Shown here: positions 32,987 through 52,196 of the stretch, one piece after another
Numbering within the stretch: position 1 is the stretch's first letter
Layout: every line of letters begins with the position of its first letter
Assembly: GCA_963748815.1 (NCBI GenBank)
Contig: CAVVKJ010000010.1
Coordinates: 544,001 to 608,000 of the forward strand
DNA length: 64,000 bases
From: an uncultured Gemmatimonadales bacterium
Lineage (GTDB): Bacteria; Gemmatimonadota; Gemmatimonadetes; Gemmatimonadales; GWC2-71-9
Direction: 5' to 3'
The notes under the pieces: generated by a model
Told to the model about the DNA's origin: nothing
Seen by the model: only the letters and a program-made list of their open reading frames with translations
Databases searched by the model: none
Translations under genes and position numbers: made by a program

Positions 32987-33015
32987 ACCCTAGCCGGGTG
33001 GCCCACGGTGGTCAA
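32987..33015 (-). promoter_or_regulatory. Putative promoter for the small TM gene and tRNA-Val
   Basis: TTGACC(33015-10), 17-nt spacer, TAGGGT(32992-87). Confidence 0.5.
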
Positions 33016-33895
33016 GCGCATTTGCGTCGCTCGGCGGCGCCGGATCAGCCAGCGGCTCCTCGGGCGGATAGGTCCAGTCGAGGTTTAGCGCGGCCCGGCG
33101 CGGGGCGTCCCTGCGGCGGCGGGCCTCGTACCCCAGCGCCACGAGGAGCGCCATCCCGAGCCAGATGCCGGTCCCCAGCAACCAGGTCACGATCCCGAAC
33201 CGGGCCCGCACGCTCTTCCGCCAGGCCTCGTCGAACCGGTCGAGCGTCAACCCGGTCGTGGCCACGACCGCGTCCTCGAAGCCGACACCCTCCCCCAGCC
33301 GCTCGAAGAGCGGTTGCAGGGAGCCCGTTGGATTCCGCCGCGCCAGCTCCATGACCGCCGTGGCGGCCAGGGCATAGGCGGCGTCGGCGGATGGCTGGGA
33401 GGCCCGGAGTTCCCCGTCGAGCGCCCGGAGCCCGGGGATCGTCCCCTTGGCCACGGCGAGGTTGATCCCAACTCGGTCCAGGAGGTCCCACTGTCCGCTC
33501 GCCATCGTGGCGTATCCCTCGTCGAACCAGAGGGGCACTCGGCCGCGCACCGCCTGGTGCAGCGCGAGGTGGGCCAGCTCGTGACGCAGGGTCCCCATCA
33601 CGTCGCCCGCATCGGCGCGGAGTACGATGGTCCGGCCGCCTGGGAAGGCTGCGCCAGCGCCCCACCCCGGGAGCCGCCCACGCGTGAACTCGCGGAACGT
33701 CACCGAGTCGGCGGTGACGACCAGGCGAATCTCCCCGAGGTCGAGGGGACCGAGCCCAGGCCAGGGACCGGGCTGATCGGCGACCTCCGCCAATCCGATC
33801 GCCAGCGCCTCCTGCGCCGGCCAGGCCACGGCGGTTACCCGGCCGACCGTGACCGCGGAGGGCTGCCCCTGCCAGAGGGCCAGCGCGAGAATCAG
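32990..33895 (-). CDS. Membrane-anchored peptidase MA-like zinc metalloprotease
   Basis: HELAH plus downstream PLWFDEGYA (gluzincin); C-terminal TM. The in-frame hydrophobic N-terminus extends to a CTG at 33895 (first canonical start is GTG at 33829). Confidence 0.8.
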   Translation of the reverse strand: MILALALWQGQPSAVTVGRVTAVAWPAQEALAIGLAEVADQPGPWPGLGPLDLGEIRLVVTADSVTFREFTRGRLPGWGAGAAFPGGRTIVLRADAGDVMGTLRHELAHLALHQAVRGRVPLWFDEGYATMASGQWDLLDRVGINLAVAKGTIPGLRALDGELRASQPSADAAYALAATAVMELARRNPTGSLQPLFERLGEGVGFEDAVVATTGLTLDRFDEAWRKSVRARFGIVTWLLGTGIWLGMALLVALGYEARRRRDAPRRAALNLDWTYPPEEPLADPAPPSDANALDHRGPPG

Positions 33896-34764
33896 GCTGG
33901 CGAATGTCGAGGGATATCTCCTCCCGCGGCGGCCACTTCAAGCAACTCCCGGCACCGCTTGCCCCAGGGGTTGAACTTGTTGGCCTTGTGCCCGTCGGTC
34001 CACGCCTGTCGCGCATCGTCCGCCCGCCCGAGAAACCAGAGCGCCCGGCCCAGTTCGTAGTACGCCTCAATCAGGTTGGGCCCGAGGGCCAGCGCCTTGC
34101 GGAAGAAGGCGTCCGCATCCTCGTACATTTCCCGCTCCTGGTACACCAGCCCCAGGTAGAAGTGCGCGTAGAGCGTGGCCTTCCGGTCGTTGTCCAGGCG
34201 GATGGCACGGGACAGATGCTCGATGGCCTCCCCGAAGATCCCCTTCTTGAGGCAGATATACCCGACGTTGATGCGCGCGAGCGCATTGGCCGGCTCCCGC
34301 ATGAGGACCTTGGAGAAGGTGCCGAGCGCCTCGTCATACTGCTCGGACAGCATCTGGGCCCAGCCGAGGAGCGAGAGCGCCTGCGTATCCTCCGGCGATA
34401 GTGCGAGGGCCTTCTCGAGCGACTGGATGGCCGCGGGGAAGTCGCCCAGGGAGATCAGGCTCCACCCCTTCTCGATGAAGGTGGAAGCGCCGAGGTGATC
34501 GGCCTGCAGGACCGGCCTGGCCCCGGAGAATTGCGGCGCCGCCCCGCCCTCCGCGTCGGCGGACAGCTGCTTATACTGCTCCACCAATCCCCGAATCTGT
34601 TCCTTCAGCGCGGTGAGTTCGCCGAGCGCCCCATCCACGCGCTTGAAATAGGCGACGATGTCGCGCTTGACCGCCTGGCGCTCCCCGCCGGCGGGGCTCG
34701 CGTCGAGCCGGGCGGCGAGCGCGGCGTATTCGTCACGCATGCCGGCGAGCCAGTCCTCGGTCAC
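33892..34764 (-). CDS. Coiled-coil + TPR protein
   Basis: N-terminal helical coiled coil followed by about 5 TPRs. GTGA-coupled to cheW. Confidence 0.85.
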   Translation of the reverse strand: MTEDWLAGMRDEYAALAARLDASPAGGERQAVKRDIVAYFKRVDGALGELTALKEQIRGLVEQYKQLSADAEGGAAPQFSGARPVLQADHLGASTFIEKGWSLISLGDFPAAIQSLEKALALSPEDTQALSLLGWAQMLSEQYDEALGTFSKVLMREPANALARINVGYICLKKGIFGEAIEHLSRAIRLDNDRKATLYAHFYLGLVYQEREMYEDADAFFRKALALGPNLIEAYYELGRALWFLGRADDARQAWTDGHKANKFNPWGKRCRELLEVAAAGGDIPRHSPA

Positions 34765-35222
34765 GTGGCGGCGGCCTCGAGCTGGAGGCGTTCCTCGCTG
34801 CTGAAGAGGCGGCCCGCCTGCAGCAGGATGACCGTCCGGTCCTCGAGGGTCAGCACGCCCAGGATGTATTTCGCGGCCAGGCCGCGGACCATGGGCGGCG
34901 AGGGTGCGATCCGGCGGCTGTCCACGCGGAGCACCTCCCGGACTCCGTCCACCACCATCCCGACACGCTGGCCGTCCATCGTGACGATCATGACGCGGGT
35001 CTCTTCCACCTGGGTGGCGGGGAGTTCGAGCCGTTTGCGCAGGTCCACGACCGGCACGACGCCGTCCCCGTACGGAAGGACCCCCTCGAGGAAGTCCGGT
35101 GCGCTGGGCACCGGGGAGGGCGCCTGATACCGGAGGATCCGGTCCACCTGGGAAATTTCCAGGGCGAACTCCTGGCTTCCCCCGCGAAAGATCACCACCT
35201 GAATGTCGTCACCGGTCGTCAT
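34761..35222 (-). CDS. cheW: Chemotaxis adaptor CheW
   Basis: QVVIF..G.QEFALEI, PVPSAPDFLEGV, PVVDLRKRL and GMVVDGV motifs. Confidence 0.9.
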   Translation of the reverse strand: MTTGDDIQVVIFRGGSQEFALEISQVDRILRYQAPSPVPSAPDFLEGVLPYGDGVVPVVDLRKRLELPATQVEETRVMIVTMDGQRVGMVVDGVREVLRVDSRRIAPSPPMVRGLAAKYILGVLTLEDRTVILLQAGRLFSSEERLQLEAAAT

Positions 35223-35653
35223 GGACCGCGCTTCCCCCCCAGGAGTCGGACTCCCAGGGCCTTGAGGTCAAGAATCGGCACCAGCACACCGTCGCGCCGC
35301 GCCACGCCGAGCGCCCAGGGCAGCGACTCTCCCGCGGGGACCGGCACCACCTCCTCGGCGAGCACCGCCTCGGCGCCGTCGACTTCCAGGCAGATCCGCT
35401 GGCGGCCCGCCCGAGCGAGCACTCCCACCGCGCCGACCGTTGCCGGGCAGGCGCCGCCCCAGAGCACCGTCGAGAGGTTCACCACGGGCACCAGGCGTTC
35501 CCGCACCGCCACAACGCCCCGCACCGCCGCATCGGTCGTCGGGACCGGAAAGGTCGTCGCGAGGTCCACGACTTCCAGCACTTCGGCCACTTCCAGGCCG
35601 ACGTCCCGCCCTCCCACCTGCACGAGGAGGTACTGGCAGGTCCCGGCGGTCAC
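35219..35653 (-). CDS. cheW: CheW-like protein (divergent)
   Basis: VLEVV, PVP....[15 protein letters not shown] and LVPILDL motifs. Confidence 0.75.
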
Positions 35654-36714
35654 GCGACGTTCATCCGCGCGAGCAGGGTGGAGACCCGCTCGCCGACATC
35701 GGAGACCGGGAGCACGAGGTCGGCCCCGCCGGCCGCCTGCGCCTCCTTCGGCATCCCGAAAATCGTGGAGCTCTCCTTGTCCTGCGCGATGCCCTTCCCG
35801 CCGGCGTCGTGAATCTGGCGGAGTCCCTCCGCGCCGTCCCGGCCCAGGCCGGTGAGCACGACGCCGATGGCGCGCCGCCCGAACAGCTGCGCCACGGAGC
35901 GAAAGAGGGGATCCGCGGCCGGGCGGACGCCCCAGAGCGGCGGCTCCTGGTCCAGCGCGAGCGCCAGCCCGTCGCTCCCCTCGGTCACTCGCATATGATA
36001 ATCCCCCGGGGCGATGTAGGCGGTGTCGGAGACGAGCGGCGCCCCGTGCTCCGCCTCGACCACCGCCAGGTCGCTCTGCGCCGAGAGTCGCTCGGCCAGG
36101 CTCCGGGTAAACCGGGGCGGCATATGCTGCACGATGACCACCGCCGCGTTGTGGCCGCGGGTGATCCGGGGAACGACCTCCGCCAGCGCGCGCGGGCCGC
36201 CAGTGGACGCCGCGATGGCCACGCAGAAGCGCGCCCGGCCCGGCAGCGCGAAGAGTCCGGCGGGCAGGTCGGGCCGGTTCGGGCGGGCAAGCATCGGCAG
36301 GCGGTAGATGTCCGCCGCGCGCGCGGCCCGCAGCGCCTCGAGCACCCGCGCCCCGAACCGGCCGCGCGAGGCCTCGTCGCGGCCCGCCTCCTTGGCCACC
36401 AGTTCGACCGCGCCGAGCTCGAGCGCGCGGATGGCGCCCGCTGTGCCTGGCCCGGCGTACGAACTGACGACCACGACGGGGCGCGGCGCCTCCGACATCA
36501 GGTAGCCGATGGCCCCGAGGCCATCGAGTTCGGGCATCTCGAGGTCCATGGTCACCAGGTCGGGCTGGTACTCGTGGACCTTTCGAAGCGCGTCCAGCCC
36601 GTTCCGCGCCGTGGTCACCACGCGAAACTCGCCGGAGCCGTCGATGATCTCGGTGAGGAGCCGCCGGATCAGGGCGCTGTCGTCCGCCACGAGCACCGTC
36701 GGGAGGCTAGAGAT
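35650..36714 (-). CDS. cheB: Chemotaxis methylesterase CheB (REC + esterase)
   Basis: ADDS..TMDLEMP receiver; ASTGGP, VQHMP and GLGRDG catalytic motifs. Start is either GTG 36696 or a non-canonical ATC at 36714. Confidence 0.95.
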
Positions 36715-37195
36715 GCGTCACTCCCCGGCGGACCGTCGACACTTCAATGCGGCCGTCGGCCACGAAGAGCCGCACCGTGCGTCCGAAGTCGCCGCCGACT
36801 TCGCTCCCGACCAGCGGGATCGCGTGGTGGGCGAGCGCCGCCCGCACCGCCACCAGGTTTCGCTCCCCCATCTGGATGGTGCCGACCGGCTGCAGGTTGG
36901 TGAACATCGACGCGCCGCCGGCGAGCCGCGCGGTGATCCGCGATGCCCGCGCCCCCAGGCCGACCATGTCCTGCAGCAGGAGCGGAATGGCCGTCTGCGG
37001 GAACTTGCCTGGGCTCTGGTCTCGCCGACTGAGCGCGGGCGACGGCAGCAGGATGTGCGCCAGCCCGCCCACCTTCGCCTCGGCGTCGTGGAGCATCACG
37101 GCGACACAACTTCCCAGGCCGATGGTCAGCAGGACATCGCCGTGACCCCCGGCCTTGTATTCCGCCACGTGCACCACAATTTCGCCCGAACTCAT
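36707..37195 (-). CDS. cheD: Chemoreceptor glutamine deamidase CheD
   Basis: [24 protein letters not shown] and VGG.FGR motifs. Confidence 0.95.
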
Positions 37196-38013
37196 GCCGC
37201 CCTCCGAAAGATGCGTTCACGGGCGTCGACCAGGGTCAGGCGTTCCCGGGCGACGCCCAGCAGCGTTTCGACCTTGCCCAGCACGAGGATGCCGCCGGGC
37301 AGCAGCGCCTCGGCGAACTGCGCGAAGAGCCGTTCCTGCATCGGGCGATCGAAATAGATCACCACGTTTCGGCAGAAGATGAGGTCGTACGCCGCCGAGG
37401 GGATGGGTTCCCGCGTGAGGTCCAGCCGGCGCACCGTGACCATCCGCCGGACGGCCTCGCTGACCTGCCAGGACGCCCCGGCCGGCGTGCAGTACTTCTC
37501 GGTGATCCACGCCGGGGCCTCGAGAAACGCGGCCTGCGGGTAGAGCCCGGCTGCGGCGCGTTCGAGGCTCCCCCGGTCGATGTCCGTGGCGTCGATGCGC
37601 ACCCGATCGGACCAGGAGGGATGCCCGATCGCCGCCGCGGCCTCCGCGCAGAGCATGGCCAGGGTGTACGGCTCCTCGCCGGAGGAGCAGCCGGCGCTCC
37701 AGGCGACCAGCCGCCCGCTCCGCGCCTCGAGCAACCCGGGCAACAAGTCGGTCCGCAGTCGATCCCACGTTTCCGAATTCCGGTAGAAGCGCGTCACGTT
37801 GATGGTGAGCGCATCCTTGAGCTTGTCCCACTCGTCCGGCTTCCGGTCGAGCACCGTCATGTACTCGGCGTACGTGTGCACTCCGCACGCGCGCATCCGG
37901 ACGAGGAGACGGCGCCGGAGACACTTGTCCTTGTAGGCGTCGAGTGTAAGTCCCGCCTCGCGGGACACCCGGCGCGTCAGGGACTTGAACCCCTCCTCGT
38001 CGTCCATGGTCAT
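37192..38013 (-). CDS. cheR: Chemotaxis methyltransferase CheR
   Basis: TINVTRFYR, WSAGCSSGEEPYT, ATDID and CRNVVIYF motifs. Confidence 0.95.
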   Translation of the reverse strand: MTMDDEEGFKSLTRRVSREAGLTLDAYKDKCLRRRLLVRMRACGVHTYAEYMTVLDRKPDEWDKLKDALTINVTRFYRNSETWDRLRTDLLPGLLEARSGRLVAWSAGCSSGEEPYTLAMLCAEAAAAIGHPSWSDRVRIDATDIDRGSLERAAAGLYPQAAFLEAPAWITEKYCTPAGASWQVSEAVRRMVTVRRLDLTREPIPSAAYDLIFCRNVVIYFDRPMQERLFAQFAEALLPGGILVLGKVETLLGVARERLTLVDARERIFRRAA

Positions 38014-39629
38014 GCCGGCACGTCCAGGATCTCGAGGTTGGAGCGCGCGAGCTGATGGCCGGGGTTCAGCTCGGCGGCCCGGCGCCAGCAGTCCCGGGCC
38101 CGATCGCGATCGCGCTGCCGGAACGCCAGGTTTCCCAGCTTGAAGTAGAGGTCATCGCCGAGGTCGGGCGCCAGCTTGGCGGCGCGATCGAAGGCGGCCT
38201 GCGCATCGTCATACCGCCCCGCGCGGTAGAGCAAGTCGCCCAGGTTCTTCGAAAGCTGGGGGAGGCTCGGCTCGTCGGCGAGCGCCGCGCGGAGCAGCCG
38301 TTCCGCCTCGGGCAGGTCGCCGGTCGCCTCGAGGAGCATCGCGAGATTGTTGCGCAGCACCGGATGCTGGGGCCACGCCTTCACGCCCTCCTGGGCGAGG
38401 GTGACCGCCCGCGGCAGGTCTCCGGCGGACCCCGCGGCGAGGGCGGCCGCCCAGAACCAGAGCGCAGGCACCGGCCGGTTCCCGAGCAGTTCCCGCGCCT
38501 TGGCCAACCGCCCCTCGGCCACCTCGGGGTCTTCTCGCTTGAGCGCGATGACGCCCCAGAGCAACATCGGCCGCGCATCCTCGCGCGCGCGCGACACCGC
38601 CTCCGCACCCGCCGCCTCCGCCTCGGCGAGCCGCCCCGCCCGCTCGAGCGCCAGCGCCAGGTTGTGCAGCCCAGCCGGCCGCGCCCCCCCGAGGTCGATC
38701 GCGCTCTGGAAGGCGGCCACGGCGTCGTCCCACCGCGCCTGCCGCAGCGCGATCAGGCCGAGGTAGAACGGCGCGTTGCCTTCCGCAGGGCGCAAATCCG
38801 CCACGCGGCGAAACTCCCGTTCCGCCTCCTCGAACATGCCGGTCTTGTAGAACGCGATGCCGAGGTTCCGATGCTCCTCCACCCGCGCGTCGTTGACCCG
38901 CTCCGACTGCTGCGTGGCGGAGGTCCCGACGCGGCGGACGAAGCCGGCGGAGAGGAGGCCGTAGATGGCCTTGCCGACCTCGAACTCCACCAGGCCGGAG
39001 GCGTCCACGACGTCCTGCACGTCGTTACGGCCGTTGAGGAGGGTGAGGATGGCCTCCTGCTCGTCGCTGAGCCGGACACCGGCCTCCTGCAGCCGCGGTT
39101 GGTCCACCTCGAACACGATGTCGAGCGTGGGAATCTTCTTGGCGATCAGGCTCCACTCGTCCACCCGCCGCGCCCCTTCGAGAAGCAGCGACTCCGGGTT
39201 GATGGACACCAGGAAGTCCTCGCGCTCCGGCCGCACGCCGGCCTCGAAGTTGAAGGTCCCGCTGCTCCACGTGAAGAGGTAGTACACCGCCTCCTCGACC
39301 TGCACCCGGATGTGGTCCTCGAGTTCGGCGCGGGTGATGTGCCCGAGCTCGACGAGGATCTCGCCGATCTTGCGATCCCGGTCCCCGGCCTGCCGATCCA
39401 CTGCGGCGCGGAGCTGCGCGTCGGTGATCCGCCCGTTGCGGACCAGCAGGTCGCCGATCCGGTCGCGCCGGTTGACGATCGAGGCGTAGATGATCCGGCC
39501 GTCGTCGAAGTAGGTATAGCCGAAGTTCTGCCGGTCGGCGACGGCCAGGCAGCCGGTCTTGCGGCCCAGCGCCAGGAGCTGGATCACGTCGGGGAGGCTG
39601 GCTTCCTTGAGGCTGCCCTTGATGGCCAT
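38010..39629 (-). CDS. DUF4388 (PatA_N-like) + MshEN-like + TPR protein
   Basis: GSL...SLPDVIQLL....KTG.L, W.SG.F.F and LLLEGARRVDE motifs; tandem RIG/KIG motifs; many C-terminal TPRs. ATG at 39629. Confidence 0.85.
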   Translation of the reverse strand: MAIKGSLKEASLPDVIQLLALGRKTGCLAVADRQNFGYTYFDDGRIIYASIVNRRDRIGDLLVRNGRITDAQLRAAVDRQAGDRDRKIGEILVELGHITRAELEDHIRVQVEEAVYYLFTWSSGTFNFEAGVRPEREDFLVSINPESLLLEGARRVDEWSLIAKKIPTLDIVFEVDQPRLQEAGVRLSDEQEAILTLLNGRNDVQDVVDASGLVEFEVGKAIYGLLSAGFVRRVGTSATQQSERVNDARVEEHRNLGIAFYKTGMFEEAEREFRRVADLRPAEGNAPFYLGLIALRQARWDDAVAAFQSAIDLGGARPAGLHNLALALERAGRLAEAEAAGAEAVSRAREDARPMLLWGVIALKREDPEVAEGRLAKARELLGNRPVPALWFWAAALAAGSAGDLPRAVTLAQEGVKAWPQHPVLRNNLAMLLEATGDLPEAERLLRAALADEPSLPQLSKNLGDLLYRAGRYDDAQAAFDRAAKLAPDLGDDLYFKLGNLAFRQRDRDRARDCWRRAAELNPGHQLARSNLEILDVPA

Positions 39630-41626: not shown

Positions 41627-42225
41627 GCCGCGGTGTTCCCCGCCGCGAGGCGCTGGAGCACGAGTTCCGAAATCCCCTTGAGCGTCTCGAAGACGCCATG
41701 CCCGTGCAGGCAGTCGGCGCCGAAACTCCGGACGCCGCGGAAATTGAGGGCGTCGTCGAGTTCGGCCGGACTGAGGATCAGGTCCCGCGGGAGGTCTTGC
41801 TTGTTGTACTGGAAGACGACCGGCAGCTGCCGGATGTCGACCCCCTGGGCCAGGAGGTTTTCCTGCAGGTTCTGGAGGCTTTCCACATTGTCGTCGTACC
41901 GCCGGGCCTGGCTGTCGCCGACGAACACCACGCCGTCGGCGCCCTGAAGGACCAGCTTGCGGGTCGCGTTGTAGTACACCTGCCCCGGCACGGTGTAGAG
42001 CTGGAAGCGGGTGGTGAACCCGCTGATGCTGCCGAGATCGATCGGCAGGAAGTCGAAGAAGAGGGTGCGGTCGGACTGCGTGGCCAGCGACACCATCCGG
42101 CCGCGCCGCCCCTCGGGCACCCGGCCGTAGATGTATTGCAGGTTCGTCGTCTTGCCGGACCGCCCAGGTCCGTAATAGACGATCTTGCAGGTGATTTCCC
42201 TGGTCGTGAAGTTGACGAGCGACAT
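41623..42225 (-). CDS. mglA: MglA-family small GTPase
   Basis: KIVYYGPGRSGKTTNL, DRTLFFDF, LYTVPGQV and NKQD motifs. Confidence 0.95.
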   Translation of the reverse strand: MSLVNFTTREITCKIVYYGPGRSGKTTNLQYIYGRVPEGRRGRMVSLATQSDRTLFFDFLPIDLGSISGFTTRFQLYTVPGQVYYNATRKLVLQGADGVVFVGDSQARRYDDNVESLQNLQENLLAQGVDIRQLPVVFQYNKQDLPRDLILSPAELDDALNFRGVRSFGADCLHGHGVFETLKGISELVLQRLAAGNTAA

Positions 42226-43888: not shown

Positions 43889-45035
43889 GGCGTCCTCCCA
43901 ATGCGTCCTTGAGGGTGTGCACGGCGGCGCGCCAGCGGCGCACCGTCTCTTCCCGGCCCCGTTCACCGTCGGGCCAGGACTCCAGCGCTTCCCAGCGCGC
44001 CCAGGCCTCGAGCGCCGCACCGAACTGCGCCCGGCCCGCCTCCGCCAGCCCAAGCAAGCGAAGCGCAGCGGGGGCGTCCGGCTCGCAGCGCAACGCCTGG
44101 TTCAAGCGAAGCACCGCCTCGTCGTACCGCGCCTCCTGCAGCAGCACCCGCCCAAGCACCAGGTGGGCGGCCCCCTCCTCCGGGAAGGCCAGCACCGCCT
44201 CCTCCGCGGTGAAGCGGGCCCGCGCCACCTCGCCGAGCAGCAACGCCTCCTCCGTCGCGGCGACCAGCACCGCCAGGTCGTGCACCGGCGACTCGGCCTC
44301 CTGGCCGGAGGGCGTCGGCTCCGCCACGCCGATGACCCCGGCCGAGGCCAGGCCGAAAAGCGTCCGCGCCACGTCGAAGTCCGACCGCCCCAGCTGTGCC
44401 GCAAGGGAGCGGACGTCGGTCATCCCGTCGATCCCGGCGAGCACCTCCCACTCGAAGGGGAGGAGGTCGAGCTGCCCGCCGTCGTCGGCGGCCGACCCGG
44501 TGAAGCGGGGGATGACGCCGAGGTGCGGGACCTTGGCCTCGATCCGGGACCACTCGTCGATCCGACGGGCCGCTTCCATCAGCAGCGACTCGGTGGGAAT
44601 GCGAATCGTCGCTTCCCCCAACGAGTCGGGGAGCGGCCCGTCCTCGAACGAAAAATAGCCTTCCGACCAGCTCATCAGCTCAAAAATGACCTCCTCGACC
44701 TGGATCCGGATCTGGCGCTCCAGCTCCTTCTTGGGCAGCGCCCCGATTTCCACCAGAATGTCGCCCAGGCGATGCCCAGGTCGCGTGCGCTGGATGGCCG
44801 CCGCCCGGGCGACGTCGTCTTCCCGGACCTTTCCGGTACGGACGAGTAACGCCCCGAGCGGGTGCGGATTGCTTCGAATCTCGGCGGCAATGACGCCGCC
44901 CACGTTGAAGTACACGACCCCCGCGTTCTGGCGCAGCTCGGAGGTGACCCGCAACACCCCTGTCTTCCGGCCCAGGTCGAGTAGCTGGAAGACGTCATGG
45001 ATCTGCAGTTCCTTCAGCGGGCCTTCGATCGGCAC
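43878..45035 (-). CDS. DUF4388 + MshEN-like + TPR protein
   Basis: GPL..L.I.DVFQLL....KTGVL, WSEGYFSF and LLMEAARRIDEW motifs; PLG/RLG motifs; C-terminal TPRs. Confidence 0.85.
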   Translation of the reverse strand: MPIEGPLKELQIHDVFQLLDLGRKTGVLRVTSELRQNAGVVYFNVGGVIAAEIRSNPHPLGALLVRTGKVREDDVARAAAIQRTRPGHRLGDILVEIGALPKKELERQIRIQVEEVIFELMSWSEGYFSFEDGPLPDSLGEATIRIPTESLLMEAARRIDEWSRIEAKVPHLGVIPRFTGSAADDGGQLDLLPFEWEVLAGIDGMTDVRSLAAQLGRSDFDVARTLFGLASAGVIGVAEPTPSGQEAESPVHDLAVLVAATEEALLLGEVARARFTAEEAVLAFPEEGAAHLVLGRVLLQEARYDEAVLRLNQALRCEPDAPAALRLLGLAEAGRAQFGAALEAWARWEALESWPDGERGREETVRRWRAAVHTLKDALGGRREQ

Positions 45036-45038: not shown

Positions 45039-47732
45039 TTACTCCGCCGCGGCGGTGAAGATGTGCACCAGGTCCCGCGTCGAGCGGAGCTGGTTGCGCG
45101 CCGCCGAGGCCAGCGCGCCCCCCGGATCGGTGCGCACCACGCGTTCCCACTGGTCCGAGGCCTCGCGGTAGCGTCGGACGCGCACCAGCGCCGCCCCATA
45201 GGCGAGTCGGGCCTGGCCCGCCTCGGGATCGAACCGGAGGACGCGCTCGAACGCCTCGATCGCCTTGTCGGCGCGACCATCCTCGAGCAGCAGCTCGCCG
45301 AGCAGCGTCAGCGCCTCGAGATCCCACGGGTCGGCGCCGAGCAGGGCGATCAGCGGCGCCATCGCGGTCTTCGGCGTGTCGATCCGTCGGAGCAGCCGGG
45401 CGAGGGCGCGCGCCGCCTCGGAGTATGTCGGCAGCAGGTCCAGGGCCCGCTGGAAGGCGAGGCGCGCGCCGGTCCAGTTGCTCCGTTCCTCCTCGAGCGT
45501 TCCCAGTTCAAGCCAGACCTGGACGAGTCCGCTGTCGAGTTGCAGCGCCGCCTGGTACGCGTCGAGCGCGGCTTCCCGCTCGCCGAGGCGGCGGGACACC
45601 CCGGCCTGGAGCTGCAGGAGGTCGGGCCGGCCGGGGGCGCGCGACTGCGCCTCGCGCAGCGCGTCGAGCGCACGGACCGGATCGCCGGTGGCCAGGCGGA
45701 CCCGGGCACAGGCAACAAGCGCCTCGACGTGGTTCGGCGCGAGCTGGGCCAGTCCTTCCGCCCCCGCCGCCGCCTCCTCCGCCCGGTCGAGGGCGAGGAG
45801 GGAGCGGACCTCTCCCAGCAGCGCGTTCACGTCGGCGGGATCGGCGGTGCGCGCCTCGCGATAGCGCTCGAGCGCTTCGCCGTGCAGCCCGCGCTTGCCG
45901 AAGATGTCGCCGAGGAGCACGGCCACCCGGGCGCGGGAGGCGCCGCGGCTGATGGCCCGCGTCAGCTCTGCGGAGGCCAGCTCGAGCAGGCCCTTGCTGA
46001 TGTAGTCGCGCGCGAGCGACAGCGCCGCGTCCTCGGCCGCCGGCGGCGTGGCCGCGACAGGCGCTTCGGGCGCCAGGTCCTCGAAGATGCCCTCGAGCAG
46101 CGTGGCGTCGAAGACGAAGGAGTCGCCGAGGTCGGTCGCCGTCACGTCGGCGCTGATCTCCGGGACGATGGCGATCAGCGGGTCCTCGTACTGCAGGTCG
46201 ATGGAGAGCTGGAACTTCTGTTGGATGTAGTAGGGCTCGAGCTCCAGGGCGCGCTTGGTGGCGCGGAGGGCACCATCGAAATCGCCCAGCTGGCTGAGGG
46301 TGAAGCTCAGGTTGTAGTGCGCCGAGGCGTACTCGGGGGACGCGTCCACCGCGCGGGCAAAGGCGTTCTTCGCGTCCGCGTACCGATGGAGCTCCATCAG
46401 CACGAGGCCGATGCCGTTCCAGGCGGCGGCGTTGGTGGGATGGTCGCCCAGCACGGCGCGATAGGTCTCCAGCGCCGGCTGGAACCGCCGGAGCTGAAAG
46501 AGCAGCAGCGCGAGATTCAGGCGTGGCGCCGCGAGATCGCGCCGGACCTGCAGGGCGGCGCGGAACGCGGCCTCCGCCTCGCCGCTTCCCGGGTCGTGGG
46601 CCAGGAGCACGCCGAGATTGTTCCAGGCGAGCGCGTAGTCGGCGTCCAGCGAGATGGCGTGCTCGTAGGAATCGCGTGCCGCGTCCCGGCGCCCCGCCTG
46701 GTGCAGGCAGACGCCGCGCTCGTTCCAGACCTTCGGCGAGTCGGCGTGCTCCTCGACAAGGGCGTCGTACAACTCCAGCGCCCCGGCGAGGTCCCGCCGC
46801 AGGAGGTGCACCTCGGCCATGGCCTGCAGGGTCAGGCGGCGGTCTTCCCCGTGGTCCAGCGCCATCCGGTACTCGCGGAGCGCCTCGGGGTAGTAGCCCT
46901 TTTGCCGGAAGGCGAGCCCGAGGTTGAAATGCGCCAGCGTGCTGCCCTCGGCGAGCGCGGGACGCATCGAATCGGCCAGCGACTGCCGGCCCGGCATGGA
47001 GCCGTCGTCGGGATGCTCGATGGTGAGGTTGGCCTGGGCGCGCCCGAGGGTGGGATTGAGCGCGATGGCCCGCTTGGTCGAGGCGCGGGCGTCGTCGTGC
47101 AGCCCCATGTCGCCGAGGACGAAGGCCAGGAGGTAGTGCGCGTCGGCGTAGTCGGGGTTGCGGTGCACCGCCTGCCGCAGCGTTTCGAGCGCCGCCTCGT
47201 TCAGCCCGCGGTTGTAAAGCGCCTCCCCGTAGTAGAAGAGCGCGACGGGGCTGTCGGGATCCTGCTCCGCCGCCTGGCGGAACCAGTCCTCCGCCACTTC
47301 CACGCGCCCCCGGGCCTTTTCGGCGAGGCCGAGCTGGAGCAGCGCGGGGATGTCATCGGGGTGCCAGGCGAGGAGTGCCTCGAACTCGGCGACCGCCTCG
47401 TCGGTGTGCCCGAGCGCGGCATAGGCGCGCGCCAGCTCCCACCGGGCTTCCCGGTCGCCGGCCTCGCGGCGGAGCCGCTCGCGGAGTTCCGTGACCCGCT
47501 GGTCGTAGTACCCGCTGGCCCGGTAGGTGATTTCGAGGTTGCCCTGCGCCACCTGCATGCGGGGATCGAGCTCGAGGGCGCGGGAGAATTCGGCGACGGC
47601 CTCGGGGATGAGGCCCTTCTGGTAGTACAGGACGCCGAGGTTGTTGTGCGCCCCGGCGTCGGACGGGTCGATGCGGCGGGCGAACGACCGCAGGACCGCG
47701 AGGTCCCGTTCGGGCAGCGCCGGACCGCCCAT
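45039..47732 (-). CDS. Large multi-TPR protein (897 aa)
   Basis: Many canonical TPRs (AHNNLGVLY, AWNNLGVL, AHYNLS) with an acidic internal linker. Confidence 0.9.
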   Translation of the reverse strand: MGGPALPERDLAVLRSFARRIDPSDAGAHNNLGVLYYQKGLIPEAVAEFSRALELDPRMQVAQGNLEITYRASGYYDQRVTELRERLRREAGDREARWELARAYAALGHTDEAVAEFEALLAWHPDDIPALLQLGLAEKARGRVEVAEDWFRQAAEQDPDSPVALFYYGEALYNRGLNEAALETLRQAVHRNPDYADAHYLLAFVLGDMGLHDDARASTKRAIALNPTLGRAQANLTIEHPDDGSMPGRQSLADSMRPALAEGSTLAHFNLGLAFRQKGYYPEALREYRMALDHGEDRRLTLQAMAEVHLLRRDLAGALELYDALVEEHADSPKVWNERGVCLHQAGRRDAARDSYEHAISLDADYALAWNNLGVLLAHDPGSGEAEAAFRAALQVRRDLAAPRLNLALLLFQLRRFQPALETYRAVLGDHPTNAAAWNGIGLVLMELHRYADAKNAFARAVDASPEYASAHYNLSFTLSQLGDFDGALRATKRALELEPYYIQQKFQLSIDLQYEDPLIAIVPEISADVTATDLGDSFVFDATLLEGIFEDLAPEAPVAATPPAAEDAALSLARDYISKGLLELASAELTRAISRGASRARVAVLLGDIFGKRGLHGEALERYREARTADPADVNALLGEVRSLLALDRAEEAAAGAEGLAQLAPNHVEALVACARVRLATGDPVRALDALREAQSRAPGRPDLLQLQAGVSRRLGEREAALDAYQAALQLDSGLVQVWLELGTLEEERSNWTGARLAFQRALDLLPTYSEAARALARLLRRIDTPKTAMAPLIALLGADPWDLEALTLLGELLLEDGRADKAIEAFERVLRFDPEAGQARLAYGAALVRVRRYREASDQWERVVRTDPGGALASAARNQLRSTRDLVHIFTAAAE

Positions 47733-47735: not shown

Positions 47736-48356
47736 TCAGCCGACGCGAATGGCGTCGAAAATGGCCCGCAGCGACGCCAAGTCGGGCAGGAGGAGGAAGT
47801 GCCCCTTCAGGTTGGACGTGTCCCCCTCGAACTGGAACTCGGACTCGACGCAGAAGACGTAGTCGCGCTCCGAGCCGAAGTTGAGGTAGGTCGAGGTCAG
47901 CACCGCGGCGCTGAGGTCCACGACGAGGCTGGGCACCGAGGGCACCAGCATCATCCCCATGAAGTCGCTGAGCGCGTTCAGGTAGGCGCTGCTCAGGATG
48001 TTGCCGACCTCCTTGATGCCCGACTGCTCCATCACGCCGAACTCGGTGGTGGTGCCGGGCGGGCGCCGAAGCAGTATATCGCAGAGGGCGTAGGCGGACG
48101 GTTCCGGGAAGAGGAGGAGGGTCCGCCCGGTCAGGTCGCCCATCATGTGCATCAGGACGGCGGCCACCACTTCCTCGGGGTCGCCGAGGACCTCGGGCAC
48201 TTCCTCGAGCGGCGTGACCGTGACCTCGGGCACGCTGATCATGATCTTCTTGTTGGTCATCTGGGAGAGCGCCGTGGCGGCGTGCCCCGCCCCGATGTTC
48301 GCCACCTCCTTGAGGGCGTCGAACTGGAGCTCCTTCAGATCGCGCACGTCTTCCAT
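47736..48356 (-). CDS. cheC: CheY-P phosphatase CheC
   Basis: Two D/S-x3-E-x2-N motifs (DALKEVAN, SGIKEVGN). ATG at 48356. Confidence 0.93.
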   Translation of the reverse strand: MEDVRDLKELQFDALKEVANIGAGHAATALSQMTNKKIMISVPEVTVTPLEEVPEVLGDPEEVVAAVLMHMMGDLTGRTLLLFPEPSAYALCDILLRRPPGTTTEFGVMEQSGIKEVGNILSSAYLNALSDFMGMMLVPSVPSLVVDLSAAVLTSTYLNFGSERDYVFCVESEFQFEGDTSNLKGHFLLLPDLASLRAIFDAIRVG

Positions 48357-48366: not shown

Positions 48367-50334
48367 CTAGACGAGGGCCGCGGCATCCAGGATCAGCGCC
48401 GGCGTGCCGTCCGCGAGGATGGTCGCGCCGCTGAACAGCGGGGCGGTTCCCTTCGGGGCATCGAACGGCTCGACCACGACTTCCTGTTGTCCCATCAGCG
48501 AATCCACCACCACGGCCGACCGACGGTCGCCCACTTCCAGCACCAGCCCGGGCCGCCGCAGGGGAACCTCCCCGCCGTCCACGCCGAGCAGCGCGCGCAG
48601 ATGCACCGTCGGAATGACCCGGTCGCGCAGCACGATGGCCTCGCGCCCGTTGACCTCCGTGGCCGGCTGGGCGTCGAACTCCACCGTTTCCGCCACGTAC
48701 GACAGCGGCAGGAGGTAGCGCTCCGTTCCGACTCGGGCCGTCAGCACCCGCAGGATGGCGAGCGTCAGCGGGAGCCGCAGGGTGAAGGTCGTGCCCGTCC
48801 CGGGCGCGCTCGAGATTTCCACCGCGCCGCCGTGCGCCCGGACCCGGGTCAGCACGACGTCGATGCCGACGCCCCGGCCCGAGACGCTGCTCACCCGTTC
48901 CGCCGTGCTGAACCCCGGCCGGCCGAGCACCTTGAGCAGGAGGTCGTCGGTGAGGGTCTCCACCTCGACGCCGATGACCCCTTCCCGCTTCGCCTTGGCC
49001 AGGATGGCGCGGCGGTCGATGCCGCGCCCGTCGTCCTGGATCCGGATCGCAACGCTGCTGTGTTCGCGGGCCGCGGAGAGCACCAGCCGCCCCTCCGCCG
49101 GCTTCCCGTGCCGCTGGCGCTCCTCGGGGGACTCGAGGCCGTGATCCACCGCATTCCGCAAGAGATGAAGGAGCGGGTCGCCGAGTTCGTCGAGGATGGC
49201 CCGGTCGAGCTCGATGCCCTCCCCCTCCATCTCGAACCGCACCTGCTTGCCCAGCTGGCGGGCGAGGTCCCGGACCGCGCGCGGGAAGCGGTCGAACACC
49301 TGCCAGACCGGAGTCATCCGCGCCTCGATGATTTCCGCCTGCAGGTCCGAGACCAACCGGCTGATCCGCGCCCCGAGCGCCTCGAGTTCGCCGCCGGGGT
49401 CGAGCTGGGCGAGCTCCACCAGCCGGTTCCGGGCGACGACGAGCTCGCCGACCTGGCTCATGAGGGCGTCGAGCCGGCGGCGGTCGACCCGAATTTGCCC
49501 GCTGCGTGCCGAGGGCACGGCCGGCGCCGCGGGCGCGGCTGCCGTGGGGATTCGCCACTCCGCCGTCTGGACGGTATCGGCGTCCACCGCGACGCTGGCG
49601 ATTTCACCGGCCGCCTCGATGGCCGCCACGATCTGCGACTCGCCGATCGGGGCGTCGAGCCGGAAGGTGAAGCGTCCATCGAACCCCTGCCCATCGAACG
49701 ACGCGGCAGGCGGCATCACGCCCGTCACCTTGCCCAGCTGCTCCGCGCGCCGCAGGGCCAGATGGGCCCTCGCGCCGAGGAGCGGCGCGTCCGGCCGGAT
49801 CTCGACGCGAACCACCCGGCCCCCCTCGTCGCCAAAATCCGCCAGCTGGATCGGCATCGACGCGGGGGGTGCCACGGCCGGCTCGGGTTCGGGTGCAGCG
49901 CCCTTCTTCCCTTTGCGCGTTCCCGATTTCCTGGCCGGCGCCGCCTTCACGGTCGAGGCGGTGGCCGCCGCCTCGAGCGCGGCCTGCAGTTCCCCCGCGT
50001 CGAAGCCGGCGTCCGCCCCGGCCGCCGCCTCGTCGACGCCTCGTTCCAGGGCATCGACCGCCTTGAGCAGCAGATCCACCACTTGGGGGCCGCCGGTGGC
50101 GCGCCCACCGCGGATCGCGTCAAGCAGGTGTTCGGTCCGGTGGGCCAGGTCGGCGAGCCGCCCGTACCCCATGGTGGCCGCCATGCCCTTGAGCGAATGG
50201 ATGGCCCGGAACAGCCCGGCCACCGGTTCCGTCGCGCCAGGCTCCCGCTCCCAATCGAGCAGCAGCCGGTTGCAGGTGGTCAGGTGTTCGCGGCTCTCGG
50301 CAAGAAAGAGGGCGGCGTACTTGTTGAGGTCCAT
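48367..50334 (-). CDS. cheA: Chemotaxis histidine kinase CheA
   Basis: Hpt IHSLKG, P2-like domain, dimerisation domain, HLLRNAVDHG, DDGRG, GFSTA, SGRGVG and C-terminal CheW domain. Confidence 0.97.
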   Translation of the reverse strand: MDLNKYAALFLAESREHLTTCNRLLLDWEREPGATEPVAGLFRAIHSLKGMAATMGYGRLADLAHRTEHLLDAIRGGRATGGPQVVDLLLKAVDALERGVDEAAAGADAGFDAGELQAALEAAATASTVKAAPARKSGTRKGKKGAAPEPEPAVAPPASMPIQLADFGDEGGRVVRVEIRPDAPLLGARAHLALRRAEQLGKVTGVMPPAASFDGQGFDGRFTFRLDAPIGESQIVAAIEAAGEIASVAVDADTVQTAEWRIPTAAAPAAPAVPSARSGQIRVDRRRLDALMSQVGELVVARNRLVELAQLDPGGELEALGARISRLVSDLQAEIIEARMTPVWQVFDRFPRAVRDLARQLGKQVRFEMEGEGIELDRAILDELGDPLLHLLRNAVDHGLESPEERQRHGKPAEGRLVLSAAREHSSVAIRIQDDGRGIDRRAILAKAKREGVIGVEVETLTDDLLLKVLGRPGFSTAERVSSVSGRGVGIDVVLTRVRAHGGAVEISSAPGTGTTFTLRLPLTLAILRVLTARVGTERYLLPLSYVAETVEFDAQPATEVNGREAIVLRDRVIPTVHLRALLGVDGGEVPLRRPGLVLEVGDRRSAVVVDSLMGQQEVVVEPFDAPKGTAPLFSGATILADGTPALILDAAALV

Positions 50335-50338: not shown

Positions 50339-50701
50339 TCAGCCGAGGACGCGCTGTACCGCCTCGAGCACCCGGGATGGTTGGAAGGGCTTCACGACGA
50401 AATCCTTGGCGCCGGCCTGGATCGCCTCGACGACGAGGGCCTGCTGCCCCATGGCGCTGCACATCAGGATCCTGGCCTCGGGCGATTCCCGACAGATTTC
50501 GCGGACGGCGTCGATACCGCCCATATCGGGCATGACAATGTCCATGGTGACGAGATCGGGCTTGAGCTGGCGGTACTTCTCGACCGCCTGCACCCCGGTC
50601 TCGGCTTCACCCACCACCTCGAAGCCCGCCTGGGTGAGAATGTCGCTGATCATCGTCCGCATGAAGATGGCATCGTCGCACACCAGGACCGTGTGGCTCA
50701 C
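50339..50701 (-). CDS. cheY: Chemotaxis response regulator CheY
   Basis: DDAIFMR, TMDIVMP, CSAMGQQ and KPF motifs (Bacillus/Thermotoga-like CheY). Confidence 0.93.
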   Translation of the reverse strand: MSHTVLVCDDAIFMRTMISDILTQAGFEVVGEAETGVQAVEKYRQLKPDLVTMDIVMPDMGGIDAVREICRESPEARILMCSAMGQQALVVEAIQAGAKDFVVKPFQPSRVLEAVQRVLG

Positions 50702-50719
50702 AGGTCAGTCTCCAGGCGT

Positions 50720-51193
50720 CTAAGAGGGTCGTGAAAAGGAGCGGTCGGCGCCGCTGGCGGCGCTGAGCAGTGGTGCCAGCAGCGCCTCGGTATCGAGTAC
50801 CACAAAATGGCGGCCATCCCTGCGTCCAACCGCCTTGACCAGCCTGACATCGACCCCCGGTAGCGCCTCGCGCGCCTCCAACTGGTCGGCCGGGAGTTCG
50901 AAGAGGTCGTCCACCCGCCCCACCGCAAGCCCGAGACGGCGCGTCCCAACATCGACGATCAGCAGGGCGCCCTCGTGCTCGGGCAACCGCGGCCGGTCAA
51001 GCAGGCGATGGGCGTCCACCACGGTCAACAGCGTACCCCGCACGTTCACCAGCCCGATGATGGTATCGGGGGCTCCGGGGATCCGGGTTGTCGGAAGGGG
51101 CGCCAGGATTTCGCGGGCACGGCTGGCGAGCATCCCGCAGGCCAGGTTGCCCACCTGAAATACCACGACGCGCACCGCCTGAGAGTCAGCCAT
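50720..51193 (-). CDS. cheW: Chemotaxis adaptor CheW
   Basis: TRIPGAP...GLVNVRG.LLTVVD and GLAV motifs. ATG at 51193. Confidence 0.9.
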   Translation of the reverse strand: MADSQAVRVVVFQVGNLACGMLASRAREILAPLPTTRIPGAPDTIIGLVNVRGTLLTVVDAHRLLDRPRLPEHEGALLIVDVGTRRLGLAVGRVDDLFELPADQLEAREALPGVDVRLVKAVGRRDGRHFVVLDTEALLAPLLSAASGADRSFSRPS

Positions 51194-52196
51194 CTCTATT
51201 AAAGAAAAGAAGATAGCGAAGAGCCTCGGCGGGAGCAACCGAGATCGAGTCCCCCGCCGCCAGCACCAGGGACGCCTGCAGATCGGCGGGCCATTCCGCC
51301 CGGAATTCGAGGGCCTCTTCGGTGACCGGATGCTTGAACGCCAGCAGTGCCGCATGCAGCGCCTGCCGCGTCGCGGCCCGCTCCACCGCTTCGGCGATCA
51401 GCCGGGCCGACCCCGAGATGCGGCGGCTCCCGCCGGCGCCGTACACCGGGTCGCCAATGACCGGATGGCCGATATGGGCCAGGTGCACCCGAATCTGGTG
51501 GGTCCGGCCCGAGTGCAGCTCCAGCCGGAGGAGGTCGGCCACCTGGAAACGGGCGATGCACCAGGCATCGGTGCGGGCCGGGCGCCCGTCCGCCAGCACG
51601 GCCATCCGCTTCCGATCCCCGGGATGGCGTCCGAGCGGCGCCTCGATTCGGGTCGGGCTCTCGTCGAGGTGGCCCCAGACCAGGGCCGCGTACACCCGGC
51701 GGATCCGGCGGGCGGAGAGCATGTGCCCGAGCCGGCGATGTGCCAGGTCGGTCTTGGCCACCAGCATCAGCCCGGAGGTGTCCTTGTCCAGCCGGTGCAC
51801 GATGCCGGGCCGTCCCTCGGCTCCACCCGAGAGCGTGGTGCCGCGCGCCACGAGGGCGTTGACCAGGGTGTCGTCCCAGTGCCCGGGCGCGGGATGCACG
51901 ACGAGGCCCGCGGGCTTGTCGATGACGGCGAGGTGCTCGTCCTCGTAGATCACCGTGAGCGGGATGTCGGCGGGCCGGATCTGGCGTGGTGGCTCGCCCT
52001 CCGGCAGCGTGACCTCCACCGCGTCGCCGCGGACCAGCAGCCGGGAGGCGCGGGCCACCTTGCCGTTGACGGTCACCCGCTTGTCGGCCACCAGGCGCGC
52101 CGCCTGGGTCCGGGAATACTGGAGCTGATCGGCGAGAAATCGGTCGAGTCGCTCGGTACCGTCGGCGAGGACCGTGAAACGCTGGGGTGCGGTCAT
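51186..52196 (-). CDS. rluD: RluA/RluD family pseudouridine synthase with S4 domain
   Basis: RLD S4 domain, KPAGLVVHP, VHRLDKDTSG, GRTHQIRVH and QALHA motifs. ATG at 52196. Confidence 0.9.
   Translation of the reverse strand: MTAPQRFTVLADGTERLDRFLADQLQYSRTQAARLVADKRVTVNGKVARASRLLVRGDAVEVTLPEGEPPRQIRPADIPLTVIYEDEHLAVIDKPAGLVVHPAPGHWDDTLVNALVARGTTLSGGAEGRPGIVHRLDKDTSGLMLVAKTDLAHRRLGHMLSARRIRRVYAALVWGHLDESPTRIEAPLGRHPGDRKRMAVLADGRPARTDAWCIARFQVADLLRLELHSGRTHQIRVHLAHIGHPVIGDPVYGAGGSRRISGSARLIAEAVERAATRQALHAALLAFKHPVTEEALEFRAEWPADLQASLVLAAGDSISVAPAEALRYLLFFNRDG
51210..51238 (-). promoter_or_regulatory. Putative promoter of the che-mgl operon, embedded in the 3' end of rluD
   Basis: TTGCTC(51238-33), 17-nt spacer, TATCTT(51215-10), then an AT-rich leader to the cheW ATG. 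Confidence 0.55.

Follow-up and report, generated by a model that had tools for sequence, protein, structure and literature searches.

A stretch of 64,000 nucleotides from a Gemmatimonadales genome (G000, contig C10, positions 544001-608000; this whole stretch is called the window below) carries a string of 19 genes in which a block encoding a Ras-like GTPase of the MglA family, roadblock proteins, PATAN and TPR proteins and a double DnaA-type ATPase is nested inside a chemosensory (Che) pathway. Since the arrangement is kept across families at 40-60% protein identity, its conservation goes far beyond chance. We consider it likely that the che genes and the inner block act together in a non-flagellar pathway, and we see about even chances that this is a chemosensory-to-polarity operon, steering type IV pili or polarity and not a flagellum. 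It would then be a deeply conserved and apparently undescribed variant of the chemosensory-to-MglA polarity circuit.

Nested gene order and its conservation

Gene identities were established through Pfam, NCBIfam and PDB sequence searches of the window proteins. All 19 genes are on the minus strand, from 32990 to about 51193-51355, with the content and order named in a first reading of the letters (hereafter the original prediction). The genome comprises 3.16 Mb in 19 contigs and is 86% complete, and the G+C content of the window is 70%. Conservation was followed in two samples. In a 20-genome set, 30 kb around the DnaA-like gene were scored by tblastn with the window's proteins (families f1, n=10; f2, n=8; f3, n=1; f4, n=1; the family-f2 tallies include one unpublished genome, G157, on which no claim depends). 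An 80-locus set consists of the best 80 matches listed in an MglA1 search of genome contigs, all of them near relatives, and its presence counts have as denominators the loci with enough flank only. Record titles in this second set begin with Gemmatimonad in 77 cases, with two assigned to Acidimicrobiia or Solirubrobacterales and one to a 'bacterium'. The MglA proteins of the two odd contigs (L073 and L076, in metagenome-assembled genomes of Acidimicrobiia and Solirubrobacterales) are 86-87% identical to that of the window, and these are probably Gemmatimonadales contigs in wrong bins.

The genes are given here in the order of transcription, with lengths in amino acids (aa), E-values of family matches and, where two fractions stand together, presence in the 20-genome and 80-locus sets respectively:

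50720..51193, minus strand: cheW1, 157 aa from ATG 51193; Pfam CheW 3.8e-25; 19/20 and 38/39 loci
50339..50701, minus strand: cheY, 120 aa, single receiver domain; Response_reg 2.8e-31
48367..50334, minus strand: cheA, 655 aa, Hpt-P2-dimerisation-HATPase-CheW without a receiver domain (Pfam); PDB matches CheA 6s1k and 1b3q
47736..48356, minus strand: cheC, 206 aa from ATG 48356, family of phosphatases of phosphorylated CheY (CheY-P); Pfam CheC 4.7e-21
45039..47732, minus strand: TPR897, 897 aa, all TPR (many TPR families); 19/20 and 44/44 loci
43878..45035, minus strand: PATANa, 385 aa, DUF4388/PATAN domain with an MshEN-like helical insert, then TPR; DUF4388 9.6e-32
43037..43888, minus strand: TPR-Robl fusion, 283 aa from GTG 43888; TPR_2 1.4e-8, Robl_LC7 4.4e-5; 17/20 and 65/65 loci
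42690..43040, minus strand: Robl2, stand-alone roadblock/LC7 protein, 116 aa; Robl_LC7 1.7e-9; PDB 7f8m 2.2e-6, MglB 6h5b 1.5e-5
42229..42690, minus strand: mglB1 (corrected model), 153 aa; G+C at third codon positions (GC3) 0.88; 17/20 and 77/77 loci
41623..42225, minus strand: mglA1, Ras-like GTPase of the MglA family, 200 aa
39629..41626, minus strand: DnaA2, two DnaA-type AAA+ modules, 665 aa; Bac_DnaA 1e-94 in two stretches
38010..39638, minus strand: PATANb, 542 aa, DUF4388/PATAN domain with tandem MshEN-like 24-mers (aa 60-113), then TPR; DUF4388 8.1e-38; 20/20 and 58/58 loci
37192..38013, minus strand: cheR, methyltransferase; CheR 8.7e-48 plus CheR_N; 15/20 loci
36707..37195, minus strand: cheD; CheD 1e-26; 20/20 loci
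35650..36696, minus strand: cheB, receiver and methylesterase; CheB_methylest 3.3e-61 plus Response_reg; 18/20 loci
35219..35653, minus strand: cheW2; CheW 1.6e-17; 9/20 loci
34761..35222, minus strand: cheW3; CheW 2.8e-31; 13/20 loci
33892..34764, minus strand: TPR290, 290 aa, TPR families; 19/20 loci at 50-91% identity, and 42/42 loci
32990..33829, minus strand: Peptidase_MA_2 protein, last gene; 1.2e-14; HELAH motif and one C-terminal hydrophobic helix; 19/20 loci

Throughout the 20 loci the order ileS-rluD-(19 genes)-secreted TPR gene is kept. PATANa, mglA1, DnaA2, PATANb and cheD occur in all 20, and cheW1, cheY, cheA, cheC and TPR897 in 19, the single miss being a contig end. TPR-Robl, Robl2 and mglB1 (17/20) are missing in three closed 4.6-5.3-Mb genomes of genus g45. 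The full cluster was also present in two genomes of a fifth family (f8), which belongs to another order of the same class. Counts in the 80-locus set leave no gap for cheA and cheY (40/40 each), TPR897 (44/44), mglB1 (77/77), DnaA2 (70/70), PATANb (58/58) or TPR290 (42/42). Wherever a related genome examined had enough flank, the che genes and the inner mgl/PATAN/DnaA-like block were found in synteny, which bears out the genetic linkage put forward in the original prediction.

The cluster also has variants. The DnaA-like gene is split into two open reading frames (ORFs) in, for example, G127 (L042) and G016 (L067), shortened to about one module in family f8 (L162-L163) and in G084 (L160), and absent from G036 (L157), where the cluster is otherwise recognisable; its neighbours remain in place whether it is split, short or absent. 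Remnants were found at the same site after rluD in two genomes, reading mglA1-PATANb-cheR-TPR290 in G114 (L158) and mglA1-PATANb in G168 (L159), both without cheA, cheW and cheY. Because the remnants keep mglA1-PATANb while the DnaA-like gene varies, we regard MglA1 and PATANb as the persistent core and the DnaA-type ATPase as an accessory. The tandem DnaA-like AAA+ protein that had been counted as part of the switch is thus real but not obligatory, being absent, single or split in some lineages. Three closed, flagellated g45 genomes (L055, L057 and L069) carry a reduced cluster without the roadblock trio, cheR and extra cheW. Their PATANa has no helical insert and their PATANb a degenerate second MshEN-like repeat, and their MglA1 evolves fast, on a long branch (1.26). 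Our guess is that cultured Gemmatimonas, too, probably carry a reduced cluster lacking the roadblock genes.

One can suspect two unrelated units, the che genes on one side and the mgl/PATAN/DnaA-like block on the other, that share one string by inertia, with no signalling between them. Interaction or co-regulation of the two is a matter of inference, the string abuts the housekeeping genes rluD, lspA and ileS just as closely, so that tight packing proves little, and the G168 and G114 remnants keep mglA1-PATANb without cheA, cheW and cheY. However, the inner block lies between the kinase half and the adaptation half of the pathway, and this interleaving survives to 40-50% identity in five families and in all informative loci of the 80-locus set. 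The module borders are tight, with overlapping start and stop codons (PATANb and cheR overlap by 4 nucleotides (nt), as do mglA1 and DnaA2, and cheC and TPR897 are 3 nt apart), the G114 remnant retains cheR beside PATANb, and PATAN-receiver fusions described in other phyla favour a link between PATAN and CheY. Inertia alone is in our judgement an improbable explanation.

Che pathway and flagellar genes

If the che genes and the inner block do act together, the output of the pathway has to be considered. The Thermotoga/Bacillus-type flavour noticed at the outset holds: CheC and CheD are both encoded, and the best solved relative of CheY is that of T. maritima (1tmy, 172 bits, E=3e-50). The best NCBIfam matches, CheA_Halo (447 bits), CheY_Halo and CheC_Thtogales (187 bits, cut-off 250), are all below their cut-offs. 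CheY is exceptionally conserved, at 81-99% identity. Its phospho-acceptor pocket does not vary at all among 20 orthologues (D9, D10, D54, S82, F101 and K104), and the columns of their alignment average 90% identity. Pfam searches found no receptor (MCPsignal) gene within the operon; the three receptor genes of the genome are on contigs C8, C5 and C10 (at ~93 kb).

CheA was counted by PF02895 (dimerisation domain) at E<=1e-5, a short domain for which divergent copies are missed, FlhA was scored as an FHIPEP/FlhA match, and the DnaA2 marker used in the family surveys required a best E<=1e-60. The window CheA is the only PF02895 match in the genome, and there is likewise a single match in G138, of the same genus, and in the closed genome G142. 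FlhA gave no match in the 86% complete genome, in any of five other genomes of the genus (95-98% complete) or in G142. Among the 96 other f1 genomes the DnaA2 marker was found in 95 and FlhA in 21, and 74 had the marker without FlhA. CheA matches in the 76 f1 genomes without FlhA (the present one included) numbered one in 52, two in 14 and none in 10, while the 21 with FlhA had at least two in 14, one in 6 and none in 1. In each of the four flagellated genomes examined, the extra CheA belongs to a cheA-cheW-cheY-cheB-cheR cluster of its own, 16-70 kb from flhA, whose proteins are only 28-42% identical to those of the window. Family f10 combines FlhA in 13/13 genomes with MglA in 0/13 and no DnaA2 marker. 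The suggestion that the output is not necessarily the flagellar motor is supported by these data: all six genomes of the genus combine a sole CheA with no FlhA match, and flagellated relatives own a second che cluster close to flhA.

The opposite view, an ordinary Thermotoga/Bacillus-type flagellar chemotaxis operon with accessory polarity genes (placing a polar flagellum, for instance), would account for the T. maritima-like CheY and for CheC and CheD. It would also suit G027 and the six of 21 FlhA-positive f1 genomes that have flagellar genes and one detectable CheA, as well as the single polar flagellum described for cultured Gemmatimonas. It is at odds with the lack of FlhA matches in this genome, its five congeners and the closed G142, with the 74 of 95 marker-carrying f1 genomes in which FlhA has no match, and with the second complete che cluster that flagellated relatives own 16-70 kb from flhA. 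Moreover, family f10 is flagellated yet without the cluster. We hold a flagellar operon to be very improbable.

The nested MglA and a second mglBA pair

The case for polarity as the output begins with MglA1, which aligns over residues 1-196 with M. xanthus MglA (5ymx, E=1.1e-70, 240 bits) and also matches T. thermophilus MglA (3t12, E=3e-68). Two features mark the MglA family: the third phosphate-binding motif reads TxxGQ, with Thr where Ras has Asp, and the DRTLFFDF segment supplies an intrinsic Arg. The alignment contains the P-loop, and both YTVPGQ and DRTLFFDF are identical to M. xanthus MglA, whose Thr78 is stated in a published abstract. MglB1 matches MglB of M. xanthus (6h5b, E=1.8e-8) and of T. 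thermophilus (3t1r, 2e-4), with E=0.011 to Pfam Robl_LC7 and 25 bits to the NCBIfam MglB model (cut-off 200). Because of the weak Robl_LC7 match and the sub-cut-off MglB score we class it, by homology, as a divergent MglB member, with GTPase-activating (GAP) activity as a prediction only.

The genome has a second mglB-mglA pair, at C10:793743-794925 (MglA 793743-794636), ~200 kb from the window and beside recR, with a roadblock gene preceding mglA. Compared with the nested pair it scores 290 against 240 bits to M. xanthus MglA and 82 against 25 bits to the NCBIfam MglB model. Two MglA matches occur in nearly every f1-f5 genome (94/96 in f1). In a maximum-likelihood tree, 25 in-cluster and 13 other MglA copies are split with 100/100 support, and each side follows taxonomy. 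Genomes without the che-mgl cluster have the second MglA type only, which in families f1 and f2 bears a ~30-aa insertion. As the nested copies form a separate 100/100 clade and cluster-less genomes keep the second type only, MglA1 is a dedicated old paralogue and not the cell's only copy of the polarity switch. The idea of a single chemosensory-to-polarity switch is therefore upheld in its conserved linkage, but MglA1 and MglB1 turn out to be an extra paralogue beside a canonical mglBA pair. We propose that the system acts on polarity as a 'switch'.

PATAN proteins and cyclic di-GMP

Both PATAN proteins exceed the PF14332 (DUF4388) cut-off of 25 bits, PATANa with 110 and PATANb with 129.6 bits, and the helical insert in each PATAN domain is made of two 24-residue repeats of the type RLGxx(L/V/I)(L/V/I)xxG...LxxxLxxQ. 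These are close to the 24-residue MshEN motif for cyclic di-GMP (c-di-GMP) described by Wang et al. 2016. The strict MshEN motif had no match, and a relaxed one had a single match, to the second 24-mer of PATANa. With the NCBIfam c-di-GMP domain model NF053729 (cut-off 38), PATANb scores above the cut-off (47.3 bits) and PATANa below it (32.6). The tandem 24-mers are conserved in 36 sequences and the PATANa motif in 16 orthologues. A profile of 36 PATAN N-domains matches T. thermophilus PilF (6f8l, 4e-16), V. cholerae MshE-N (5htl, 1.7e-8) and PilB (1.7e-7), and the match to 5htl falls exactly over the binding motif of MshE-N.

In the AlphaFold model of PATANb (pLDDT 82, pTM 0.71, the predicted local-distance and template-modelling scores) the insert forms four helices. 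The top row of a Foldseek search with this model is 5htl, that is, MshE with c-di-GMP (root-mean-square deviation 1.3 Å over 51 columns, 37% identity), at a non-significant E of 0.22. Going by the profile matches, the insert of the PATAN domains and the c-di-GMP-binding N-domain of MshE, PilB and PilF are homologous, and the PATAN-TPR proteins are predicted to be c-di-GMP sensors. The genome has 12 GGDEF matches, 11 of them above the family cut-off. Complex prediction of CheY with the N-terminal PATAN domains of both PATAN-TPR proteins returned a score of 0.00, which speaks neither for nor against binding.

As for the other repeat proteins, no hydrophobic segment was found in TPR897, which is cytoplasmic by prediction. 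NCBIfam searches with the TPR proteins gave generic TPR matches only and no SgmX-like or other specific name.

A double DnaA-type ATPase

The two modules of DnaA2 (~aa 4-236 and 395-620) are joined by an Ala/Pro/Glu-rich linker, and each shows Walker A and B, sensor I, box VII and sensor II. An alignment of 230 residues pairs the first module with domain III of B. subtilis DnaA (8bv3, E=6.6e-52), and the start of DnaA2 coincides with the start of that domain. Pfam searches found neither Bac_DnaA_C (domain IV) nor the N-terminal domain I in the protein, and the true dnaA of the genome is on another contig, C19. A candidate beta-clamp-binding motif at the N-terminus, QLSPQL, was rejected: it aligns with LNPKYTFDTF, the start of DnaA domain III.

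Gene models and limits of the transcription unit

The mglB1 model starts with an ATG that overlaps the Robl2 stop by 1 nt and stops 3 nt before mglA1. The longest ORF between the roadblock gene and mglA1 is another one, a 158-aa frame at 42266-42742 on the minus strand that is gene-like by length only. We rejected it as mglB, the frame being wrong (GC3 0.55, no family, Arg/Gly/Pro-rich junk). Automatic callers working on 70% G+C DNA could choose this frame.

Junction lengths were computed with the starts that best fit the neighbouring genes. Under these models 17 of the 18 internal junctions are overlaps or gaps of at most 18 nt, so the expectation that every gap would be an overlap or under about 20 nt fails at one place, the 62 nt between TPR290 and the peptidase gene. 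The GTG of TPR-Robl (43888) overlaps the PATANa stop by 11 nt. At the upstream end the ATG of cheW1 (51193) overlaps rluD by 8 nt, and its in-frame alternative starts, TTG 51238 and ATG 51355, both fall within rluD. This upstream neighbour is outside the system:

51186..52286, minus strand: rluD-like pseudouridine synthase; PseudoU_synth_2 plus S4; same position in 19/20 loci

It is followed further upstream by lspA (52207-52716), a DksA/TraR-type zinc-finger gene (52700-53083) and ileS, and all of these abut or overlap (51186-56427, minus strand).

The promoters predicted in the original prediction to bound both ends were not recovered. Neither 32000-51999 nor 50500-57000 contained a sigma-70-like site, and the minus strand of 29500-33500 had none either, in promoter and terminator scans that use E. 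coli-type consensus and say little on this phylum. Inside the string no terminator-like sites were found on the coding strand. An AT-rich 20-mer, unusual for the genome, is located just before the cheW1 ATG within the 3' end of rluD, and it might be an internal promoter or a ribosome-loading site. Downstream, 269 nt from the string, lies the gene for a 603-aa TPR protein with a signal peptide (30909-32720, minus strand; in 19/20 related genomes), and the first minus-strand terminator-like site after the string (30898-30883) is directly behind it. This secreted TPR gene may belong to the same unit as the 19 genes. With bounding promoters absent in the scans, no upstream gap and the terminator-like site beyond the next gene, the limits of the transcription unit are not definable from sequence.

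Farther downstream, ~3 kb from the operon or its downstream neighbour, is the dcw cluster (15507-29633, minus strand), with ftsZ, ftsA, Mur ligases, mraY and a penicillin-binding protein (PBP) with a PASTA domain. A 606-aa ORF at 12407-14227 (minus strand) has good coding statistics (GC3 0.86) and no Pfam family.

A proposed pathway and other possible outputs

A chemosensory-to-polarity operon could work as follows. Receptors encoded elsewhere would signal to CheA through the three CheW proteins, while CheR, CheB, CheD and CheC would adapt the system and turn over CheY-P, as in Thermotoga/Bacillus-type systems. CheY-P would then act on an operon-encoded partner. PATAN is the likeliest candidate, given that cyanobacterial PatA-type regulators combine a PATAN with a receiver domain in one protein. 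MglA1, its cycle governed by MglB1 together with Robl2 and TPR-Robl, would thereby change its location or its GTP/GDP state. In the GTP form, and scaffolded by the TPR and PATAN-TPR proteins, it would act on the pilus motor, gated by c-di-GMP at the MshEN-like inserts, and the double DnaA-type ATPase would be a lineage-specific, nucleotide-dependent accessory of MglA1 and PATANb. A pilus target is favoured by the PilB-like, PilT-like and PilM genes of the genome, by the homology of the PATAN insert to a domain of pilus ATPases, and by the published ties of PATAN-REC regulators to PilB1 and of MglA with SgmX to pilus activation, taken up below. In its full form, a c-di-GMP-gated polarity circuit with a DnaA-derived double AAA+ ATPase as the nucleotide-driven partner of a dedicated second MglA, this proposal is speculative and we rate it as rather unlikely. 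If it were true, bacterial Ras-like GTPases would have, in the DnaA-derived ATPase, a regulator or effector of a new class, and flagellum-less Gemmatimonadales could steer pili, or choose the pole of growth or budding, by chemical signals.

Several observations weigh against a chemosensory-to-polarity operon. The link from CheY to the inner block is deduced from gene order and homology, and the canonical mglB-mglA pair elsewhere in the genome could be the real polarity switch. A PilB-like gene with an adjacent PilT-like gene and PilM are present in the genome, yet PilM occurs in 195/201 genomes of the phylum regardless of the cluster and does not discriminate, and no pilus gene was found in or beside the operon. 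CheY, CheC and CheD are of a type that normally serves flagella; given the single CheA match in 6/21 flagellated f1 genomes and in G027, the cluster may also feed the flagellum there. The genome, as said, is 86% complete. Finally, the cheW-cheY-cheA-cheC order plus cheD recalls Dif-like clusters, which control exopolysaccharide.

This last point leads to a non-flagellar pathway with some other polar or envelope output, either exopolysaccharide and matrix or the pole of growth, division or budding, the DnaA-type ATPase linking it to the cell cycle. Apart from the Dif-like content of cheW-cheY-cheA-cheC and cheD, the last gene of the string encodes a membrane-anchored HExxH peptidase and has the secreted TPR gene behind it in 19/20 genomes, a PBP gene and the dcw cluster lie ~3 kb away, a DnaA-derived ATPase is in the operon, and pilus genes do not co-vary with the cluster. 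On the other hand, the operon has no receptor, unlike Dif clusters, and no exopolysaccharide or division gene; DnaA2 is without a DNA-binding domain and dispensable in several lineages; and published work on PATAN and MglA points, as far as the cited texts go, to pili or gliding. We think an envelope output unlikely. Steering of pili or polarity is the reading that we carry into the comparison below.

In Myxococcus, whose genome has the parts far from one another, there is still debate on how a chemosensory pathway reaches the MglA switch. The present operon unites all candidate parts (kinase, CheY, phosphatase, GTPase, three roadblock proteins, TPR and PATAN scaffolds, ATPase) and is conserved. 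Most carriers have no other Che pathway and no flagellum, and the operon offers a compact and genetically tractable protein list for the missing CheY-to-MglA link. It would give the poorly understood PATAN domain a testable role as a c-di-GMP-sensing adaptor, provide the first non-replicative context for the DnaA ATPase module, and supply a first lead on the control of motility or polarity in Gemmatimonadota, a widespread and little-studied phylum.

Comparison with known systems

The closest functional parallel to a chemosensory-to-polarity operon would be the Frz pathway acting on MglA/MglB (with RomR and MglC) in Myxococcus xanthus, where a Che-type pathway is likewise thought to control a Ras-like MglA and a roadblock MglB. 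Extra roadblock paralogues are common to both (MglC there, Robl2 and TPR-Robl here), and the large TPR effector SgmX of M. xanthus possibly has its counterpart in TPR897. Hallmarks of Frz are the CheA-receiver fusion FrzE, the double-receiver protein FrzZ and the cytoplasmic receptor FrzCD. In contrast, CheA has no fused receiver here, the only receivers are those of CheY and CheB with no FrzZ-like double receiver, and the operon has no receptor. It has instead a Thermotoga-like CheY, CheC and CheD, PATAN-TPR proteins, a double DnaA-type ATPase and an MglA that is a second paralogue. While frz genes and mglBA are described as unlinked in Myxococcus, their counterparts are interleaved in one string here. 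MglA and the TPR protein SgmX are reported to activate pili in Myxococcus.

Part of the neighbourhood is already in print. Group 1 MglA has been recorded in Gemmatimonadetes, with some mglA genes near PATAN genes, and the same paper describes mglA of Myxococcus and Bdellovibrio as not near signalling partners (Wuichet & Søgaard-Andersen 2014). MglA/MglB homologues are stated to be 'regularly' encoded next to PATAN proteins (bioRxiv 2021.06.11.447907). PATAN-REC regulators of Synechocystis bind the pilus ATPase PilB1, and social motility in Myxococcus requires the PATAN protein SgnC (bioRxiv 2021.06.11.447907; eLife 73405). We found no paper describing the operon or linking a DnaA-type ATPase to MglA, and full-text searches joining MglA, DnaA and AAA+ returned none, these searches covering main texts (such neighbourhoods may be listed in supplementary table S2 of the 2014 paper). 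The novelty claimed for the combination thus stands for the operon and the ATPase but not for the PATAN-MglAB neighbourhood.

The cyanobacterial Tax/Pix systems with PatA-type regulators also join a Che-like pathway to PATAN proteins, and there they are reported to control type IV pilus polarity. They differ in that PATAN is here fused to TPR, with no Response_reg match, CheY is separate, and MglA/MglB and an AAA+ ATPase are added.

With the Thermotoga/Bacillus-type (F1-like) flagellar pathway the operon shares CheA with P1-P5, CheW, CheY, CheC, CheD, CheR and CheB. The difference is that no flagellar export gene was found in the genome or genus and that eight non-Che genes are nested within the pathway. 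The dif gene order resembles the cheW-cheY-cheA-cheC of the upstream half. Dif and Dif-like clusters of Myxococcus and Geobacter have CheW, CheY, CheA, CheC and CheD in common with it (and CheR in Geobacter), with an output that is non-flagellar; such clusters were described as regulating exopolysaccharide in a 2008 paper. There, however, a receptor is in the cluster, and the paper mentions no MglA, roadblock or TPR gene; the likeness seen here is one of gene content.

At the level of single domains, the PATAN inserts share with the MshEN/GSPII domain of MshE, PilB and PilF the tandem 24-residue repeats and the profile match. They differ in being inserted in a PATAN domain and not N-terminal on a secretion ATPase, in having a position 11 that is not hydrophobic in each repeat, and in that PATANa remains below the NCBIfam cut-off. 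DnaA2 has in common with DnaA domain III and Hda, of the initiator clade of AAA+ proteins, the Bac_DnaA match and the initiator motifs in both modules, but it carries two modules in one chain without domains I and IV, and its gene lies beside mglA1 and PATANb rather than the origin.

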